A stretch of DNA of 64,000 nucleotides from Amoebophrya sp. A120 (taxonomy: Eukaryota; Protista; Dinoflagellata): positions 4,873,369-4,937,368 of the forward strand of contig CAJINV010000005.1 in assembly GCA_905178155.1 (NCBI GenBank). Reading direction: 5' to 3'. Position numbers and translations under genes: made by a program. This document shows, piece after piece, positions 5,601 through 52,200 of this stretch. How positions within the stretch are numbered: position 1 is the stretch's first letter; each line of letters begins with the position of its first letter. Under the pieces are notes generated by a model that was not told the DNA's origin, searched no databases, and was given only the letters and a program-made list of their open reading frames with translations.

Positions 5601-7260
5601 GAACCGGGAAAACGACGCTCTCCGCCGTCATAGAAGGGCTCTTCTTGGGGGAGAACAAAGGGGGCAGTGGCAGCACCACCGAAAGCCGGTTCGCCGATGG
5701 CAGGATACGTCGGAGCCGCCGCACTTGAAGAGTACGACGCAGCTGCGGCCGGGTAAAATGGCGTAGCAGCAGCAGCGGGCGGATATGATCCCGCCGAAGA
5801 AATAAACGCCGGTGCGCTGCCCCCGCCTGCCGCAGAATAAGGCTCCGCGGCGGTCGCACGGTACCCTCCTCCTCCTCCCCCCGGAGGATAACTCCCCGTC
5901 CCCACGGCGCCAACAGCGGGTCCTCCTCCCGCGAACGCATTAACACCGGAGTCTCCGCTCAACCTGCCACCTCCAACAAAGGGTAGTTGCGCCGGAACTG
6001 CGGCCATTGGAGCTCCAGCGTGGGCAGCTGCCGGTTGTCGTGCGCCCGCTTGGGCAGCAGCTCCCACTTGTCGTGCTGCGCCCGCTTGTCCGCCGACTTG
6101 CGCTCCCGCCCCGGCAAGTTGTTGGCGTTCGTCCGAAGGAGTTGTCGCCTCGTTGTAGTAGTGGGAAGGCTATCCATTGCAAATATGTCTGGGTCTGGAT
6201 GTGTCATGCTAGGCTCGCAACACTCGTAAGTCTGTCATGCGCGTTACCTTTGAGCCCTGTTTTTCTGTGATGCAGAAACGCAGTTTGCCATGCAGAAGAG
6301 GCAACACTTAGAAGCTCCGAAACTTGTCATGCTGAGCCACTACTTGCGGACTCCACATGCTACGTCACTACAGCAATACAAGTTTCCAGAAGCAGACCTA
6401 TTTGCATTTCGTAAGCGCGGCGGCAGTTGGTGCCCGTAGTGTTCAAAGTGTGCCGCGACTGCCGCCCGGTGCGCGTCATCTACGTGCCGCAGATGCTCCG
6501 GTAGATTGTGGCCGGACATCACGGCGCGAATCGCCGCCTCTTGCGCTTCCCGTTCCGGGCTGCCCGGGGGATAGTCGTGGTTTCCCCCGGCGGCCTCCAC
6601 GAGCCAAGCTTTAGGCTGGTACTTGCTGCCCGGTAGAGGGTAATGGTCCAGCCGGGTCCTCGCGCCGCTCGGAAGCTGGTGCTTTTCCCGCATTTTTGTC
6701 CTCTTGGCCACGAAAGAGGAGGCGGACGCACGTCCAGGACGAGACCCTGCAGCCTCATCGGTAGCACCGAGGACAGCTTCTCGCTCCTGCCGCTTGTGGT
6801 TGTGCAATCCTGCAGCAGGAGCAAGCTCTCGTCCGCCTTCCCGCCGCTGGTTCCGGAGGTATTCGACCGTATTTTTGCGACTCAGCTGTAAGTACACCTC
6901 GGGCGGATGCAACACGTCGTCGGCGGATTCATCGTCTTCAAAAATGTCGAGGGTTGGACGATGGTTGTGGTGTTGGTGAATATTAAAACCGTAGTTTTTC
7001 TCATCGACATCGTCCTCCTCATCATGTTGATCGGCGTTCAGATTCTTGTTCGTGATTTTGATGTTCTTGTTGTGTTCTAAATCTGTATTCGCCTGCTCCT
7101 GCTTCCTGACCCCGGCTGCGAATTTCACAAAATTGTTCCCGGAAAAGAACACGACAAACAGCTTGGAAAAGGAGCCCACCGCGGCGCAAGACGGAAGAAA
7201 CCCCACACGACGTGTCGCCCGGGGGGAAGACCGGCCGCAGGTGGGGAACAGGGCAGCCAT
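2631..7260 (-). CDS. Large low-complexity Gly/Ala/Pro/Ser-rich protein (~1360 aa), unknown function, 3 exons
   Basis: ORFs 6340-7260, 3587-6067 and 2631-3413 join in frame (QLPP|PSHYY; GGG|SGQRP) after removing the introners at 6171 and 3390 plus 5 nt. Internal 144-bp duplication at 3716/3860. Confidence 0.75.
3390..3668. mobile_element. Introner family B
   Basis: TATCCTGAGTAAAAAC...GTTTTTACACAGGATA; TSD GAACC. Confidence 0.95.
6171..6413. mobile_element. Introner family A (diverged)
   Basis: TATCCATTGCAAATATGTCTGGGTCTGG TIR; degenerate TSD AAGGC/AGCGC. Confidence 0.85.
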
Positions 7261-8249
7261 GATGTAACTTCTTGGTAGAAGCAGGATGAGAATCCAGTAC
7301 TACACTGGAGCTTTTTATTGATTGGCCTTGTATATTAGCTGCAATTGGGTTGCAATTGCACGTTTGCTTGTTTGCAGTGGTTTGTTGTTGTTCACCTTCA
7401 GGATCGGAAGAGAATGTTGAACTTGAAAATCAATCAGGTCGCAATAATGTACGGTGAAGCGGGGCGTGAAAAAGTTTTGTCGGTTAGCGAAGTGTTTACT
7501 ATGCTGGGAGTGGGAGCAAAAACTTCCTGTTTTTTTTTTCAACAATTATACGAGAAAAGTCATTTACGGCATTCGCCTTTTACAATACGGAAAATCTAAA
7601 TTGTCTTGGTAGACAGCGCACGTACGAAAAGCGGAGGAAAGAAGTACTAGAGCATCTTCTTCATTGAACGAATACGATGTACCGAACAATTGTTCTTATA
7701 CGCTTTGCAACACAACAGGCCAACAGGCGCACGAAAGAGACCGAAAAGAAGAAGCTGAGGCCAAGTACAGATTGCTATTTTCGAAAAAGTAGACCGACGA
7801 GTTGTATCAAGATCAACTTCTAAAAATCGCTCTATCAACTGTACGAAGGACTAGAGCGTCGTAGTCGTACTGACCGAAAGAAGCATAGACCACGATTGTG
7901 CAGCAAAGGACGAAAATTCGAAACTAGGACATGGAGCAAGACCGAGCGGAGATGACAACGCTTGTATTCAAGAAATACAACCGAATAGGAGCATAAAAGT
8001 ACACCTCTCAAAAGAGCACCGAAAAAGAGAAGTCGTAAAAAAAAAACAAACATCCTGAACCGGCGACATTTCAAAATACCGAGGGGAGCATCGGAAACTA
8101 CGCCAAGCCGTGTGTAGAAACGGCACGGGAGAGTGCATATGCACTAGTGCTTTGCGTGCTTGTTCACAAAAAAATGTCTTTTTTGAAGTGAGATGCAGCA
8201 GCTGATTCTACTGCATCTCCGTAGTTTCATTCCTGCACAAAAAAGCCGA

Positions 8250-10371: not shown

Positions 10372-11309
10372 CTTGGTCAGTTTCGCGGTGGTACAATAGG
10401 GCTCTTTGATATCCTCGGAGTATCTTTTTAATACAACAAGGGTTGTTGCTATCACCAAAGAAAAGGTAGATATTTTTTCTCTAATATCAGTTTTTGTTCC
10501 GCTTGCGCTTTGTCGAACGTTGTCTTCGTTGGCAAGAACCTCAACCTCAACAGTAGAATCAAACTCCCAACTCTACTCCTCGTTCTCTAAGCCAAGTTCG
10601 ACCTACTAACTTTTCATCAAACACCTTCAAGAACTTTACATCGATATTAACTTTTTCTCGTGCAAACAGAATTAAAACCTGCTGGTGAAATGAATACGAA
10701 ATCAACGACCGGCTAGAAAAGTCAGTTGAAACAAACACGGCGGGCAAGTGATCATGATCTGATCACTTGCCAACACGAGACGCGCCTTCTGCGCAGCTCC
10801 GGTAGACACTACAAGCTGCGTCATGTTCGTATGCGTTGGCGTTCTTGCATAACAACCAATCTAAACCGCATCAAACTGCGTCTGCCGGCAAGTGCAGTGT
10901 CACGACAAAACCAAAGTGTAAAAACTTCTCCGGTGGAGGTGATAACAGTTTGGTCCTGCGCACAACAAGAACTTCTAAACAATAAACGAGGAAATAAACA
11001 AAATCGAATAGGCCAAACGCAAACCAATTCGCAATTATACCTGCTGATGAATTATCTAACGCAAGAACTTGTTAAGCTTTTGTTGTTCCGATCAACGGAA
11101 GATAGCGTATAATTTGTTTGTTGTTTATTCAAGACGTGGCTCTTGAAAGTCTCGCTTTCTGCTCACGTGTTGTTAGAGCTACTTTAAGAAATACAAAGCA
11201 AGGAACTATCTAAAGGTACTTTTGGATGCAAAACGGACAGCTTTTCGTCCGATAAAAACAGTTCGCGTAGATGAAGAAGATAATATCGTCGCAGCTTTCG
11301 CAGTAGCAC

Positions 11310-14300: not shown

Positions 14301-17300
14301 CTGCAGCAAAAGCTCTTCCGGGGTGGAATACTCGGTGGCGACACTGCTTTGCTGCATCTTTTCCTGCTGCGGTAAGAACCCAGAAGGACTGGCGGGTGTA
14401 AAAGAAGTTCCGCTCACCCTGCTGCTCCTTGCGCTGCCTTTCGCCGCGGCATGCTGTTGACCCCCTATGTGTGCAGCCGAGGTCGGCGGTGACCAAGCGG
14501 TTATCGACGCGACGCTCTTGCTATCCGATTTCGCAGACTGTGGCGGGCTGGAGAAGTAGTAGTAATTGTTGCGTGTTTTGTTCTGCTCTTCATTCAATTT
14601 CTCTGGCGGACTACTGGACGCTGCGCTGGCGAACCCGGCGATGTTATCAAAAGGAAAAACTCCCCCTCCCCATATTAAAACGGAAATCTGTGATGCAGAT
14701 TTGTTGTCACAAATCAGCTTTGTCATGCTACACGGGAAAAGATGCGGACTGTAGTGCTGGGTGGCGTGGGGAAGCCTTGCATCTTCAGCATGATAGGAGG
14801 CAGCTGAAAGTGGGAAACAGCATGACAAATTGCCTGCAAACGAGGCCACGACTGCGGCTCTTGGCCTTCTAGCATGACAAATCGATTTGTGACCTCAAAT
14901 ACAGCATCACAAATTTCGTTTTCGATATGGGGAGGGGGGATTTTTCCTTTCGATAGATGTCGTAATTCTCCTGGTCGTCGAGAAAGTTTTGGTTTTTGTT
15001 CAGAGGTATGAACTGCAAATATGTCTGGCTCTGGGAGATTCCGAGCCTTGTCATGCAGATTTTCCATGATCCATGTCGTCTGGAATTCAGCACCTAGCAC
15101 GACAGATTCTCTGAGATCCCTACCATGCCTATCCTGCATGAGAAACTCCCTGTCAACTTGATCGAAAGTGGACGTCTTTTGGCACTCATGCAACACAGAA
15201 TCTTGCATGCTTCAGACTTAGCATGACAAGTTGCAACCTTCCAGATCCAGACCCAGACATATTTGCAATCCATAAGAGACTGAAGCACCGTGGTCAAAGG
15301 TGACCGGGGCCGCTTGTTCGTGTTGTTATAGCCTTTGTTCAGCATTTCATGTCGTGGACTGCTGTTAAAACTGCTGTTAATTGCCGCGGTGCTCGCAGTA
15401 TGCATTGCAAATGTGTCTGGGTCTGGAAGATTGCTATAGCAGACTTGTGACGGCGCAGGTCTTGCATGACCCATACCGTCTGGCAAACAGGACCTAGCAT
15501 GACAGATTCTGTTTTTACATCTCTATCATACCTCTCCTGCATGACAAACTGCCTCTCAACTTGGGCAAAAATACACACCGTTTGGCAATCATGCAACACA
15601 GATTCTTGCACCATTCTAGACTTACCATGACAAGTTGCAGTGTTCAGGACCTTCTAGACATATTTGCACTTGATACGCATAGGCAGCTTGCTTCACTTTC
15701 CCAGAAGAAAACACTTCTTCCAGCTCCTGCATTCGTCTTCTCGCTTGTTCGATTTTCTTCACTTGCTCCTCTTTGGACAAAAGCTTGCTCGCGAAATCAT
15801 TTTTAGCGGTCTTCTTGTTGCTTTTCCCAAATTTCAAATTGTTGTTACTCCTGCCCTTCTTGTTCGCATTCAGCACTTCCTGCAGCGCCTCCTGGGCTAT
15901 TAAGAGGAAACATCCCCCCTCCCCATATCGAAAAGGTATGCTTGCGAAAATTTGTGTTGCTGATTTGAGACCACTAATCACGTCTGTCTTGCAAGAAGGC
16001 AACTCCACAAGCTCCGCAGCATTGTGCAGGCGGTTTGTGATGCTCATGGGCCTACATCACGGACTTTTCTCATGCTAGACCCCTAGGCCAAAACCTCTCT
16101 ACTTAGGCTTAGTATGGGCCTGCATTCCTCTCCAGCAACACAAATCTGACTTGTGTACGCAAATCCTGCATCAGAAACTTCGTTTGGATATGGGGAGAGG
16201 GGATTTTTCCTTCTGATATGCGCTTTCTTCGCTTCGAGCCTCAGTTTTTCCAATTCCATTTCCCGTTTTTCGTTTTCAATCTTCTCCCGTTCCTCCACCA
16301 ACTGCGCAAGCATGGTTTCCTCTTTCGCCTCTTCACAGATCAGCTCGCCCTATCAACTGCAAATATGTCTGGGTCATCTGGAAGATTTCTCATGCAAGTC
16401 TGGTATGACTCTGAGCTCTGTATTGCGTAGCCGCAAAGACGAGCTCCTCCTTTATGTCTTGCAAAAACGTAGTTTCTCATGCGGAGTACGCAACTCAGAA
16501 CCACGGAAAAACTTGTCATGCTGTGCAACGCATTACAGTGTGCTCACTATTTTCCCCGTGCTTGCATCACAAGTTTCCAGACATCCACGGGAGATATTTG
16601 CATTTGATACGCCCTCGGTCGTGTTCAGCAGCAAGTCGTCATTGTCGTATTCGTCGGGCTCTTTTCTGTCAAAGCTGAAGGGTTATCCTGAGTAAAAACG
16701 TACCCACACCAGAGTCAGGATGGGGAATCTGCTAGACAAATCAGCCAGCTTTGGTTGTTTGGCATGACAAGTTTGTCCGCGTAGTGTAGTGCTGTTTGAG
16801 CTAGTTTAGCAGCATTACAGATCTAGTATCTCGTGCTGATTGGAGCATGACAAATTTCAAAACCACACTAGAAAATGCTTCTCATGGGGCTCCGCATGAG
16901 AAACATTTTAAGCATGCAGAGTTGCATGACAACTATGGTGTGGGTACGTATTTACTCAGGATAAGGGCTTCGGCTTAGTCACCGGGGCGGGTTGGATGTT
17001 TGGGTTGTCGGTGTTGGGCGGGACAAGATTTGGATGCAGCTTGTCCCGTATTCTCGTCGCCATGTTGTTTCGGCGGGCAGTGGAGCTGTTGTTATTCGAG
17101 CTGGATTGTAGTTTGCCAGCAGTCTGTCTTGCGGGTGCTGCTGGGGCAATTTTTCCACCACCAATATTCGCCATGTCCTCCCTCCGGATGATTTCCGTTC
17201 GCGTTTCCTGCTTCAGATGCGCGGGCTTGGTTGTGGACATCACGACATTGGTACTGTTTGATGTAGTTCCGACACCACCAACATTACCGCCGCCGCGTGG

Positions 17301-40274: not shown

Positions 40275-43200
40275 ATGGACTTTGACCAGTTTGACACGGA
40301 AGAGCTGGACCAGCTCGACATCAACGCGCTGCGGGAGGGCATCCTTCAGCTGATCGGCGACCGGCACAAAAAGCGGGAGGCGCATATCAAATGCAAAAGT
40401 GTCTGGGTCTGGAAGAGTACAACTTGGCATGCTAAATCTGAACCATACAAAAATCTGTGTTGCATGATTACCAATTATAAAGCTGTTCACTTTTGAGAAG
40501 GCAGTGAGGTAGTTTCTCATGCGGAAAAGGCATGGTGAAGATCTTGCAGAATCTGTGCTGCTAGGGCATGCATCACAGACCTCACGCGTCATGCGAAACG
40601 TGCATGACTAACGTTGCACTTTTCCAGACCCCGACACTTTTACACTTGATAGCGCAGGAGCGGATACAGGAGAAGATCCGGGCCCTGAACAGCGAGCTCG
40701 CTATGAGAGTGCACAACTCCCCCTCCCCCTCATTTGTATAGCATGAACGGCAATAGAAGCGTCAGCAAGGCTGCCGGTTTTGCATGGCAAATTTGCACAG
40801 GAGAGCAGTACTATTTGTGCTGCCGGAATCTGTCATGCAAACAGTGCCACAAGGCAGCGCCTGAGTTTGGAGTTTTGCATGACAAATGAGGGGGAGGGGG
40901 GGTTGTGCATTGTCATACCTGCGGCCAGGCAGGTAGAAGGCGATGAACTCGCGGAGGAGTTGGAGGATGTGCGGGCCTATCAAATGCAAAAATGTCTGGG
41001 TCTGGAAGAGCCAAACTTGTGATGCTGCATTTGGATGCTAAAAAAATCTGTATTGCATGAGCAGCAAGAGGAGTCAAATTTGGCTACGCGGAGAGGGCAT
41101 TGGTCATGCAGGATCCGCATCGATAGGCGCTCAAAAAATCTGTGATGCTATGGCATACATCACAGACATCATGGATCATGGAAAATGTGCATGACAAACT
41201 TCTCCTCTTCCAGACGCAGACATTTTTACATTTGATAGGGCCGAGAACACGAGGAAACTCAAGTCCATCAACATCAACACGGACTCGGGTGTATGATCCT
41301 GTGCAAAAGTTGTACCCTCGTTGTTGAAAACCATACGAATTGCAGTCTTGCATGACAGATCTGCTTTGCTTGCCTCAAGCAGCATGACAAATCAGTTTTG
41401 GAAGATCAAAACTTGTTGTCCCCGTTGCGCAGGCGTGGTGCTTTTGCAATGCATACCGTTCGGGAGACATCATGGCCATGGACTTTGACCAGCTGGAGGA
41501 GATTCGTCAGATCTTGTTCGGCGAATTGCAAAAGCTCGCGGGGTCGAAATTTGATCCGAGTGAGGACATCACGAAAATCGAACCAGATGAAACCGAGCTC
41601 ATGGTGGAAAAGGACGATCCGTCCAAGGAGCAGTCCATAGTCGACACAGTGCTGGTCCTGTTCCACCCAACAGAAGATCCCGAGGGACAGGTATTCACGC
41701 AAACCTACCGAACTACCGAGTCGACCACGGTGAAGCAACTTTTGCGCGACGCCTGCAAATACTGGGCCGTCAGCACGGAGGAGTTTGTTCTGAAGACCGT
41801 CGGCTACAACGCCAAAGTGCAGGGGTCGATGCAGGTGACGCAGGTTTTCCGACCGGGGGAGCTTAGCCAGCTGGTGCTGATGAAGAAGAACCCGAAGAAC
41901 GTCTTCGTTTCCGAAGCGGAAAAGCGGGCGTGCTTACCGAAGAAGGGGCGCGGCGCTGCGGGCGCTGCCGGGGCGGTGGAGAAGAAAGACAAGGACGAGG
42001 ACGACGCCCCTGTGTACAAGAAAGAAAAGCCGTTTTTGGAGCAGCTGAACCAGATATGAGAGTGCACAACTCCCCCTCCCCCTCATTTGTCATGCAAAAT
42101 ACCGAATGCACTCTGTGCCCTTTTGGATTGTTAGCATGACAGATTCTGGCAGCCAAAAGACCACTACAATCCTGTGAAAATTTGTCATGCAAAAGCTGTT
42201 CATGCAATGCAAATGAGGGGGAGGGGAGGGCTGTGCACTCTCATACCAGTTTCCAGGGTTGCGGGAAACCTTACTGCAGAAAGACTTGTCGGTCTACCAC
42301 GAACCCGAGAAGTGCCGGGACTGCTTCGGGTTTTTCCTCCTAGTGCTCTTTTCGTTTTTACTGATCTACCTCGGCTACGCATTGCAAATATGTCTGGGTC
42401 TGGAGGGTTGGAACTTGTAATGCTAAATCTGAATCATGCAAAAAATTTGTGTTGCGTGATTTCCAACAGCCGCCTCTTTTTACCAAGTTGAGAGGGAATT
42501 TCTCATGCAGGATAGGCATGATAGAGATCTCACAGAATTTGTCATGCTAGGCACTGCATTTCGGACCTCATGGGTTATAGAAAACCTGCATGACAAATCT
42601 GGCATCCTTCCAGACCCGAATATGTTTGCATTTGATATCGACCGGGATTTCCAGAAGGAATTTTTCCTCGCGGAGGACGTGCGCGCTATTTTGGTCGACA
42701 AGTTGCAGCTCTTATCCTGTGTAAAAACGTACCCACCCCAGAGTTGTCATGCAAATCTGCATGCTCAAAATGTTTGCCATGCGGAGCCCCATGCGAAGCA
42801 TTTTCTGGTCGTGTTTTGGAATTTGCAATGCGCCAATGAGCATGATATACTAGCTCTGTGATGCTGCTGAAACAGCACTACACTGCAACTCCAAATTTGT
42901 CATGCAAAACAGCCAAAACTCGTGGATTTGTCTAGCCGATTCCCCATCTTGACTATGGGGTGGGGACGTTTCTACATAGGATAACTCTACCGCATCGCCA
43001 CCAGCGACGACTACTTCAGCTATCTGAGAAGCCTCGAGCTCGAGTTATGCACTGCAACAGTGTCGTACTCGTACTAAAACTAATTGCGGCTATGCATGAC
43101 AAGTCTTCTTCTTAAGGTAAAAGAGCAAGACAAGTTCCATTTGTCATGCCGAGCAAATTTGTAATTGCAATAGCTACAAGTGCGATACTGTTGCAATGCA

Positions 43201-49285: not shown

Positions 49286-52200
49286 ATGCGGCTGCCGCGG
49301 AACAAGATCGCCTGGGTCTTAACCGCGCTGCTGGGTGGTAGCCACGTCAAAACATCAACCCTCGCACTCCGTGTGGTCCCCTACGACCCCTCCGACGGGG
49401 AGGACCGAAAGGAGCTCAACCCGCTGCTCCCCGATGCGAAGACGAACCGGATCCGCGAACCCAAGCAGTGGGTATCAAATGCAAATGTGTCTGGAAACTT
49501 GTGATGCTGGGTGGCGTATCATGAGGAGGCCACACGTGCTGGCTCTGCATGACAAGTCTCCGAGCTGTTCTAGGTGTTGCCTATTCCGCATGACGAAAAT
49601 GCGCTTCTGCTGCATGACAGAAAAGTGGCGGTCTTGGGTAACTTGCGTGACAGGTTTGAGAGTCATGCCAGACAAGCATGACAAACATGCACTCTACTTC
49701 CAGACCCAGACGTATTTGCACTTGATAGTGGGGCCGCGGGTACTACATGGTGGTGACGCCGTATGCAAGAAAAAAACTGTGTAAGTGTAAATTTGTGTTG
49801 CAGAACATGCAACAGAGTTACACCTGTCATGCCAGACAGCCATGAAGTCCTCTACTCGTGTGTGTTTTCCCTTACTAAGCCACGCATGACAGGTTTTCTC
49901 TGTCATGTAGAGCAAATTTGTGATGCTGTCAACCAAAGAAAGTTACACGAACGCAGTTTTTTTCTTGGATACGCCGAAGGGAATTCCGCTCCTGAACCCG
50001 CGGTGGTTGCCGGACAAGTCCGAGATTCCGCCGTATATCAAATGTAAATATGTCTGGGTCTGGAAGAATGCAACTTGTCATGCTGCATTTGGATTCCAGA
50101 AAAATCTGTATTGCATGAGTACCAAAAGGAATGTAATTTTTGCTACGCGGAGAGGGCATTTGTCATGCGGAATAGGCATCAAGAAGCTCTGAGAAAATCT
50201 GTGATACTAGGGCATGCATCACAGACATCAGGGCTCATGCAAAACGTGCATGACAAGTGTCAGAATGTTCCAGACCCAGACACTTTTACAGTTGATACCG
50301 TACGAACAGAAAAAAATCCCGCCCAACAACAAAGTGGACGAGTTTAAGTTTGAGCAGGGGGATGTTTTCCAGGCGAAACTGGAGTCCATACGGAAGAACG
50401 GGGAGGACATCCAGCGGTACTTGCGGATCTCAGAACCCTTATGAGAGTGCACAACTCCCCTGTCTCCCTCATTTGTCATGCAAATCACCTAATTTACGCA
50501 TGGGCTCGTGGCACTGTTTGCATGACAAGTTCTGGCAGCCCAAAGAGCACTACACGCCTGTCCATATGTGTCATGCAAAACCTGTATTCTTGCTGAGTCA
50601 GCAAGAATACAGCAATAACATGCATGAACAGCAATACAAGCGTCAGCAGCTGACGCTTGTATTGCTGTTCATGCAATTACACAAATGAGGGGGAGTTGTG
50701 CACTTTCATAACTCTGCAAGGCCTGGGTGCCGGTGTTTGAATCGATGGGCGGGGAGCCGATGATCAAGCGGATTGTGGAGCACGAATTTGTGGAAAGGGG
50801 GATTCCGGTGCATTTCCGCCTCCCGGCCAACGATCTCGTCGAGGGTGAAACGCTTTACGAGCGGAAACTCCAGGAAGAAGCAAAACCGGAGGAAGAGCAC
50901 GTCACGCAGCCGAGGAAAATCACGACGGAAAAGGTGCCGACCGAATCCGACCCGGCGTCGGAAACGGAGAAAAAAGCAAATTCCATCGTCGTGGAAGAAG
51001 CGAAGGAAGTGGAGAAAAAAGCAACGGACAAGTGGAAGAAAATCATCATGGCGAAAAAGAAACTAATCGCCGATGCGAAAGAGTCGGGAAAGCCGATTTC
51101 CAAAGTCATTGAAGAAGCCAAGCCGAAGGTGGAAACGAAAAAGACTTTGACCACGGAAGAGAAGAAAAAGGACCTGATAGTCCCCCCTCTCGGGAAGCCG
51201 AAGGCGAATAACGCGGGTGGGGCGAAGGAGAAACCAGCAGAGGCGGCTGATGCCACGGGAAAAGCGAAAGCAGAAGCGAAACCGAATATTAAATCAGCCG
51301 CCGTTACATCAACAACTGAAGCAGTTGTTCCACCGCTTCCACCTACCACCCTCGTGCGGACGCAAACCCCCGTGCCGGTTATCCAGGACGTAAATTGTCT
51401 GAGTAAGAAATGCGAAAAGGGGTTTGAGTGCGTCAACGGATTTTGTGAAAAAGTGCCGAATATCAAATGCAGAAGTGTCTGGGTCTGGGAGATTGCGAGA
51501 CTTGTCATGCTAGTCTGGCATGACTCTGAACTCTGTATTGCGTGGCCGCGAAGCGCTCCGCTTGCCTGTCATGCAAAAACGCAGTTTCCCATGCGGAGTA
51601 CGCAACTCAGAACCACGGCAAAACTTGTCATGCTGGGCAGCGCATTACAGTGTTTCCGCTATTCCCTTCCTTACATCACAAGTTTCCAGACCCAGACATT
51701 TTTACATTTGATACCGAATCGGGAGCACAGTTTGTGCGTCGTTCACGAGTGCTACTGGATCCGGCAGCAGGGAAGGGCTTCTGCTCCGCCACCGCCTCCG
51801 AAAGTAGACGCAGCTTCTTTGTTCTTTCTGCAACACAAATACAAGTATCACGACAGACATCTGCAAGACCCTTCGTCGCAAAACAATACTGCGAAAAATA
51901 ATGCAGTAAAAAATGAAACCGCATCTACTGCTCCCCCCTCAGAACCGCCGGAGCAGCCCACTTTGACCGCGCCGAGAACGCAGTTTCAGAACCACACCGA
52001 GGAGAAGTTTGTCGTGAACCACGCTCCTAACGCAACGACGATGACGACAGACCCGCACGCAGCGATTGGATTGACGAATGACACCACGAAACTGTCGCGG
52101 AAAGCGCTGATGAAGAAGAAAACCGCGGTGGACCACTGTTCGAAGATTTTCGAGAAAGCAGATTGCACCGCGGCAAAAACGGATGGGATGTGCAAGTGGA

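Follow-up and report, generated by a model that had tools for sequence, protein, structure and literature searches.

A palindromic double scar within an Amoebophrya introner and its probable origin in hAT-type excision

The host introner and its locus

The subject of this report is a 57-base insertion found within a single introner of the dinoflagellate Amoebophrya sp. A120, in a window (the whole 64 kb stretch of DNA that was analysed) from contig CAJINV010000005.1 of assembly GCA_905178155.1. The insertion is associated with two back-to-back palindromes and is probably, as argued below, the repaired scar of a departed transposon. The host introner occupies positions 50440–50710 on the forward strand, is 271 bp long, has TAT…ATA inverted ends and belongs to a family of 46 detected copies. 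It is bounded by a 5 bp target duplication (not assigned to a strand), the left copy of which (ACCCT, 50435–50439) differs from the right (ACTCT, 50711–50715) by one mismatch. The upstream host exon (50303–50439) and downstream host exon (50716–51460), both on the forward strand, share a reading frame that remains open once the introner is removed. In RNA-like contigs (X3 and X4, from two runs of one sample, the RNA status being a guess) 50437 is joined to 50714, skipping 276 nt that correspond to the introner plus five flanking bases, and the ends of the skipped segment are not GT–AG.

Inverted ends, short direct repeats, membership of a repeated family and removal from transcripts without GT–AG borders identify the focal element as an introner. 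Its architecture agrees with that published for Amoebophrya A120 introners (PMC7789003), both having inverted ends and short direct repeats (PMC7789003, PMC12130899); published work is cited throughout for the passages drawn on here. Farhat et al. report no putative transposase for this strain, and the words ‘footprint’ and ‘excision’ appear in the main text of neither A120 paper (PMC7789003, PMC12130899).

Palindrome scans and element counts were extended to 414 kb, made up of the window and 44 related loci (350 kb) obtained by scanning metagenome contigs for the end of this introner family. The loci belong to a separate assembly and supply the majority of the counts below, rather than the window's own genome. 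A total of 374 elements were detected in the window and loci, including the 46 of the focal family. None of the 44 loci is an orthologue of the host locus, and the ends of the family had no match in viral contigs or prokaryote genomes. The window contains 60 candidate elements; a perfect 5 bp duplication flanks 35 of them, and a perfect duplication of 3, 4 or 6–10 bp none. Two sister introners lie in the window: a reverse-strand copy of 216 bp (40702–40917) that retains a single empty site, and a forward-strand copy of 191 bp (42055–42245) without the stretch around the scar site. Summed X1 contig depth over the interior of the family reaches ~1000 times that of the flanking unique contig, a rough sign of a large family. 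Where the two copies of a 5 bp introner duplication differ by a single mismatch (all loci), position 1 is most commonly affected (23 of 69, mostly transitions), a bias that may reflect the splice register; as a guide to duplication length, mismatch position gives P = 0.05–0.06.

Anatomy of the double scar and its likely formation

Two perfect inverted repeats mark the scar, one with 15 bp arms around a G at 50597 (50582–50612) and one with 27 bp arms around an A at 50648 (50621–50675). Both had been described in a sequence-only reading of the window and were recovered here at the same positions, as were the 8 nt filler between them and the 214 bp that remain when the 57 nt insert is taken out, compared with 216 bp in the single-site sister. 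No other perfect inverted repeat (loops of 0–10 nt) in the 64 kb is as long, the runner-up having arms of 12 bp, and the number expected by chance over this length is 6 × 10−5 for 15 bp arms and 4 × 10−12 for 27 bp arms. The sequence GCTGA occurs twice, at 50592–50596 and 50649–50653, and was originally taken for a 5 bp duplication. The loop bases alter this count. In the empty site GCTGA lies between T and C (T-GCTGA-C); G, the loop base on the left, complements the C that follows GCTGA (and which sister copies carry), and A, the loop base on the right, complements the T that precedes it. Each inverted copy extends one base past GCTGA, which brings the overlap of the flanks to 7 bp (TGCTGAC). 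A perfect 12 bp inverted repeat elsewhere in the window (10743–10771), with a 5-base loop and outside introners, does not follow this rule.

From left to right the scar can be divided into seven parts. The original left flank (50582–50596, forward) forms the left arm of the first palindrome and carries bases 1–6 of the 7 bp overlap at 50591–50596. After the apex base G (50597, forward), probably the tip of the left hairpin, come the inverted copy of the left flank (50598–50612, reverse, 15 nt), the filler (50613–50620, reverse, 8 nt) and the inverted copy of the right flank (50621–50647, reverse, 27 nt); both inverted copies may be regarded as palindromic (P) nucleotides. The apex base A (50648, forward), the putative tip of the right hairpin, precedes the original right flank (50649–50675, forward), which forms the right arm of the second palindrome and holds the last six bases of the overlap at 50649–50654. 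Neither fold-back joint has any microhomology (0 nt). The filler and the four bases before it copy 11 nt of the bottom strand of the right flank with one extra, slipped A; this is ordinary end-joining synthesis, a templated patch with 4 nt of microhomology.

Among the 46 members of the family only the focal copy carries the 57-base insertion, which is therefore derived. No second GCTGA or inverted copy was found in the other 45 copies by local alignment of the empty site, many of these copies being too diverged to align well. The contigs aligned to the window do not cover an empty allele of this locus. Apparent joints that skip the 57 bases were seen at 90% likeness and proved to be sister copies; they were gone at 97%.

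We consider it about three times in four likely that the insert was left, after repair, by a hAT-type cut-and-paste transposon which had inserted in the introner and was then excised via hairpins on its flanks. Hermes illustrates the relevant chemistry, in which the nick is offset by one base relative to the element's end. In hAT excision the hairpin forms on the flank (PMC5499845, PMC6900584), and the complement rule has been set out for Ac/Ds footprints (PMC5873905, citing Coen 1986; Yu 2004; Lazarow 2012). Insertion of the nested transposon would have duplicated its target; on excision, the transposase would nick one base into the flank at each end and the free 3′-OH would attack the opposite strand, giving a hairpin that carries at its tip the complement of the lost base. 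Host nucleases would then open each hairpin 3′ of its tip, as the complement bases at both tips imply, at distances of 15 and 27 bases, and end joining via the 4-base microhomology, with brief copying from the other end, would complete the repair. Since the introner is spliced out, the scar would be harmless. Hairpins opened at the very tip would leave insertions of 3, 4 or 6 bases (core, complement base, core); the focal scar would belong to the 6-base class as a version with long arms. The 7 bp overlap would represent either a true 7 bp duplication, as in hAT7, or an 8 bp duplication in which one end was cut a base deeper.

In Ac/Ds (PMC5873905), as here, the centre of each palindrome is the complement of the element-adjacent base, ends are joined by microhomology and long arms occur (up to 20 nt in yeast). 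At the focal site the apex bases pair as G/C (50597) and A/T (50648), and the ends are joined by the 4 nt microhomology and templated patch. The overlap is 7 bp rather than the usual 8 and the arms reach 27 nt; in further contrast to Ac/Ds, the scars described here and below occur naturally, have become fixed and are very densely packed, and a single product, of 3 or 6 bases, predominates. The hAT families with duplications of 5, 6 and 7 bp (hAT5, hAT6 and hAT7) make the 7 bp overlap compatible with a hAT element, hAT7 having been described from rust fungi (PMC12730594).

Related scars in the window and loci

A scan of the 414 kb for back-to-back palindromes with 1 nt loops and arms of at least 6 bp, of the kind proposed in the sequence-only reading, returned 13 pairs. 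The complement rule gives an overlap in three of these (the focal scar and one each in loci L035 and L033), compared with none of the 13 for a same-base rule and ~0.1 in shuffles; neither of two zero-loop pairs shows an overlap. The L035 example (15289–15397) has an overlap of 8 bp, the canonical hAT length, with arms of 19 and ~33 nt, a small indel and no filler, whilst that in L033 (5395–5443) has an overlap of 6 bp and arms of 13 and 8 in AT-rich DNA. A compact double scar in L028 (1296–1313) has a 7 bp overlap, a net gain of 12 bases and hairpin arms that share the same five bases. Across these four double scars, the loop bases obey the complement rule in eight cases out of eight.

Other fold-backs are one-sided. 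In L043 (3075–3175) a fold-back with 12 bp arms and a complement loop is followed by a duplication of ~40 bases, and in L040 (10615–10641) a palindrome with 13 bp arms and a 1-base loop adjoins a piece of introner end in a complex arrangement.

Much shorter insertions show the same grammar. Private insertions of at least 3 bases, called by comparing each introner with its nearest sisters, number 240, of which 156 are of 3 nt, 34 of 6 nt and 27 of 4 nt. Two duplicates and the calls with a wide register (22, 2, 1, 5 and 0 for sizes 3–7) were removed before the rule was tested. The core–complement–core arrangement then fits 106 of 133 insertions of three bases (null 22), 16 of 25 of four bases (null 2), 16 of 28 of six bases (null 1.5), and none of the six five-base or five seven-base insertions. 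Where both flanking bases are equal, the complement occupies 32 of 35 centres against an expectation of one third (P ~10−12). The three-base scars have almost no site preference, and target-site logos for this class are too weak to separate duplications of 4 and 5 bp. That the centre bases might be leftovers of the T/A ends of introners was considered and rejected, the centres being A (29), T (26), C (25) and G (18).

A sister-free test was made on host DNA with introners removed, compared with shuffles; inside introners, such counts are swamped by family motifs. There is an excess for cores of two and five bases and little or none for cores of three and four. Two-base cores number 302 in the window (185 ± 13 in shuffles) and 2144 in the loci (1003), and five-base cores 172 in the loci (29). 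In 30 kb of non-coding DNA there are 241 two-base cores against 90, with other centres at the null, and in open reading frames of at least 200 codons the excess over codon shuffles extends to all three phases, for G/C and A/T flanks alike. The density of three-base scars estimated from this excess, and so dependent on the shuffle null, is about one per 130–250 bases. Among repeated stretches, which share 80% identity or more and include some introner remnants, the gaps fit the rule in 13 of 16 three-base and six of eight six-base cases, no null having been run for this comparison. Tests of whether the three-base class goes with duplications of 4 or 5 bp gave two cases of single-sided arms against one, one and seven in controls, and 56 of the shared-arm pattern against a mean of 38 and a maximum of 89 in other cells of the comparison. 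Hairpin-type cutting is likely to be a leading source of small insertions in this DNA.

Two paralogous stretches in L035 and L036 (~7139–8233 and 326–1425 in host coordinates) are 86% identical and lie apart mostly by rule-fitting insertions of 3 and 6 bases. At two sites in L036 there are introners where the L035 counterparts are cleanly empty.

Several observations weigh against a hAT-type origin. Ten of the 13 palindrome pairs have no overlap (null 3.1; they were not inspected singly), and the overlaps in the double scars vary in length (6, 7, 7 and 8 bp). The arms of 27 nt at the focal site and ~33 nt in L035 exceed the 20 nt maximum quoted for Ds in yeast. In L043 (3106–3130) a complement loop is followed by resumption ~40 nt upstream, showing that the loop rule can arise without a short duplication. 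Short double-sided scars (two, against none and one) are not above control rules, and the five-base core signal in the window alone is weak (13 against 7 ± 3), with the rule-breaking class also raised (17 against 9). No element with a 7 bp or 4 bp duplication, hAT7-like or otherwise, was recognised in the 414 kb, in which no transposase search was made. Finally, positions 50601–50618 are uncovered in contigs of X1, X7 and X8, as is an ordinary stretch nearby (50556–50564).

Competing explanations and the responsible element

A host enzyme that makes staggered breaks with hairpin ends, whether topoisomerase II (with its 4-base stagger and 5′-linked tyrosine) or a domesticated hAT-like nuclease, would account for two aspects of the three-base class: its near lack of site preference, and an apparent overlap of 4 bp in the commonest scar for which no element with a 4 bp duplication was recognised. 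Trapped topoisomerase II is reported to give short duplications in yeast (10.1101/2020.05.03.075358). The topoisomerase variant, however, calls for partial fill-in followed by resealing to the wrong strand, which is conjecture, and a search of that preprint showed no instance of the word ‘hairpin’; the 7 bp overlap of the focal scar and those of 6 and 8 bp elsewhere are left unexplained. We regard a host enzyme as improbable, and topoisomerase II as a weaker rival for the origin of the three-base class.

Copying of both flanks backwards, by replication template switching or by fold-back synthesis at a break (synthesis-dependent microhomology-mediated end joining (SD-MMEJ), polymerase theta, polymerase delta), is also unlikely. 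In its favour are the templated copying and microhomology of the filler, published cases of short inverted insertions at breaks (PMC11724301), and the one-sided fold-back in L043 with its long duplication. The documented fold-backs, however, prime at inverted microhomologies (10 bp, with a 41 nt loop; PMC11724301), whereas the loops here are of 1 nt and the joints have no microhomology, and it is this absence, in the focal and other double scars, that largely refutes template switching. In addition, the base copied by the G at 50597 would be absent from a broken left end, and neither the symmetric complement bases nor the fixed three- and six-base classes are predicted.

An assembly or amplification artefact confined to the focal site is very unlikely. 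No contig spans the palindromes and the exact scar junction is absent from the metagenome contigs searched, yet the same grammar recurs in a separate assembly (L028, L033 and L035) and between the paralogous L035 and L036 stretches, and a slipped templated patch would be an unlikely product of consensus errors. From 50650 to 51450 the window is identical (no differences) to an X1 contig.

The least probable explanation is the one first offered for this site, a nested element of Transib/RAG type with a 5 bp duplication: GCTGA is duplicated, Transib and RAG do make flank hairpins (PMC5499845) and introners here do make 5 bp duplications, but a 5 bp count holds only if the loop bases, whose fit at this site has a chance of 1 in 16, are ignored, RAG cuts at the element–flank boundary (PMC6900584) and should leave loop-free palindromes, and non-tandem three-base scars follow the RAG rule in 42 of 100 cases, about as often as chance. 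What survives of that proposal is excision of a nested element via flank hairpins. Opening of the flank hairpin by host enzymes, as proposed here, is common to RAG/Transib coding joints and the Mutator-like element Muta1, the excisions of which are mostly precise (PMC5499845, PMC6900584).

If hAT-type excision is accepted, it remains to be asked which element was excised. Read in the manner of Ac/Ds, scars of 3, 4 and 6 bases would imply duplications of 4, 5 and 7 bp. The duplication-bearing elements recognised in the 414 kb are the introners, with 5 bp, and a single element in L026 (700–1557) with 6 bp, which is 858 bp long, has 23 bp CAG…CTG inverted ends and subterminal repeats, lacks a long open reading frame and is hAT6-like. 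The focal scar cannot derive from an element with a 5 bp duplication; the abundant three-base scars may.

A tentative answer, which we think somewhat less likely to be right than wrong, is that the introners are moved by a hAT-like transposase of their own whose cut at one end falls a base deeper than that of Hermes or Ac; a scar would then be two bases shorter than the duplication. The scar sizes of 3, 4 and 6 equal duplications of 5, 6 and 8 bp minus two. Introners with 5 bp would then leave one codon, 6 bp elements four bases and 8 bp elements two codons, and the focal 7 bp overlap would come from an 8 bp element. Symmetric cutting of 6 and 8 bp elements predicts scars of 5 and 7 bases, the sizes at which the rule has no fit (0/6 and 0/5). 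Counting against an asymmetric cut, the overlaps of 8 bp in L035 and 6 bp in L033 fit symmetric cutting, no description of asymmetric end cutting was found in the literature examined, and four tests of duplication length (short double-sided scars, single-sided arms, shared arms and mismatch position) did not separate 4 from 5 bp for the three-base class.

Taken alone, the focal scar is textbook hAT biology; the novelty lies in the dense minimal scars, which preserve the frame. We found no excision scars or footprints of this sort described for Amoebophrya or for introners in the open-access main texts covered. The idea that a footprint can add codons is a long-standing one in maize genetics. 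Here, excision chemistry can be read from genomic sequence by a simple rule; the transposase that makes introns in this lineage had been reported as missing. The two main products, of 3 and 6 bases, preserve the reading frame even in DNA that is under no selection for frame, and scars in long reading frames would add whole codons to proteins. If the asymmetric cut were real, introners hopping through exons would have inserted whole codons every 130–250 bases, acting as a frame-safe mutator that could feed the rapid evolution of proteins that has been reported for Amoebophrya, and revealing the chemistry of the missing transposase. Comparison of strains could address both which enzyme moves introners and why Amoebophrya proteins diverge fast.

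Perfect or near-perfect palindromes also occur in tandem arrays in two of the loci, L039 (907–1298) and L043 (2285–2890); in L039 they have 19 bp arms and no loop and recur every 177 bases.
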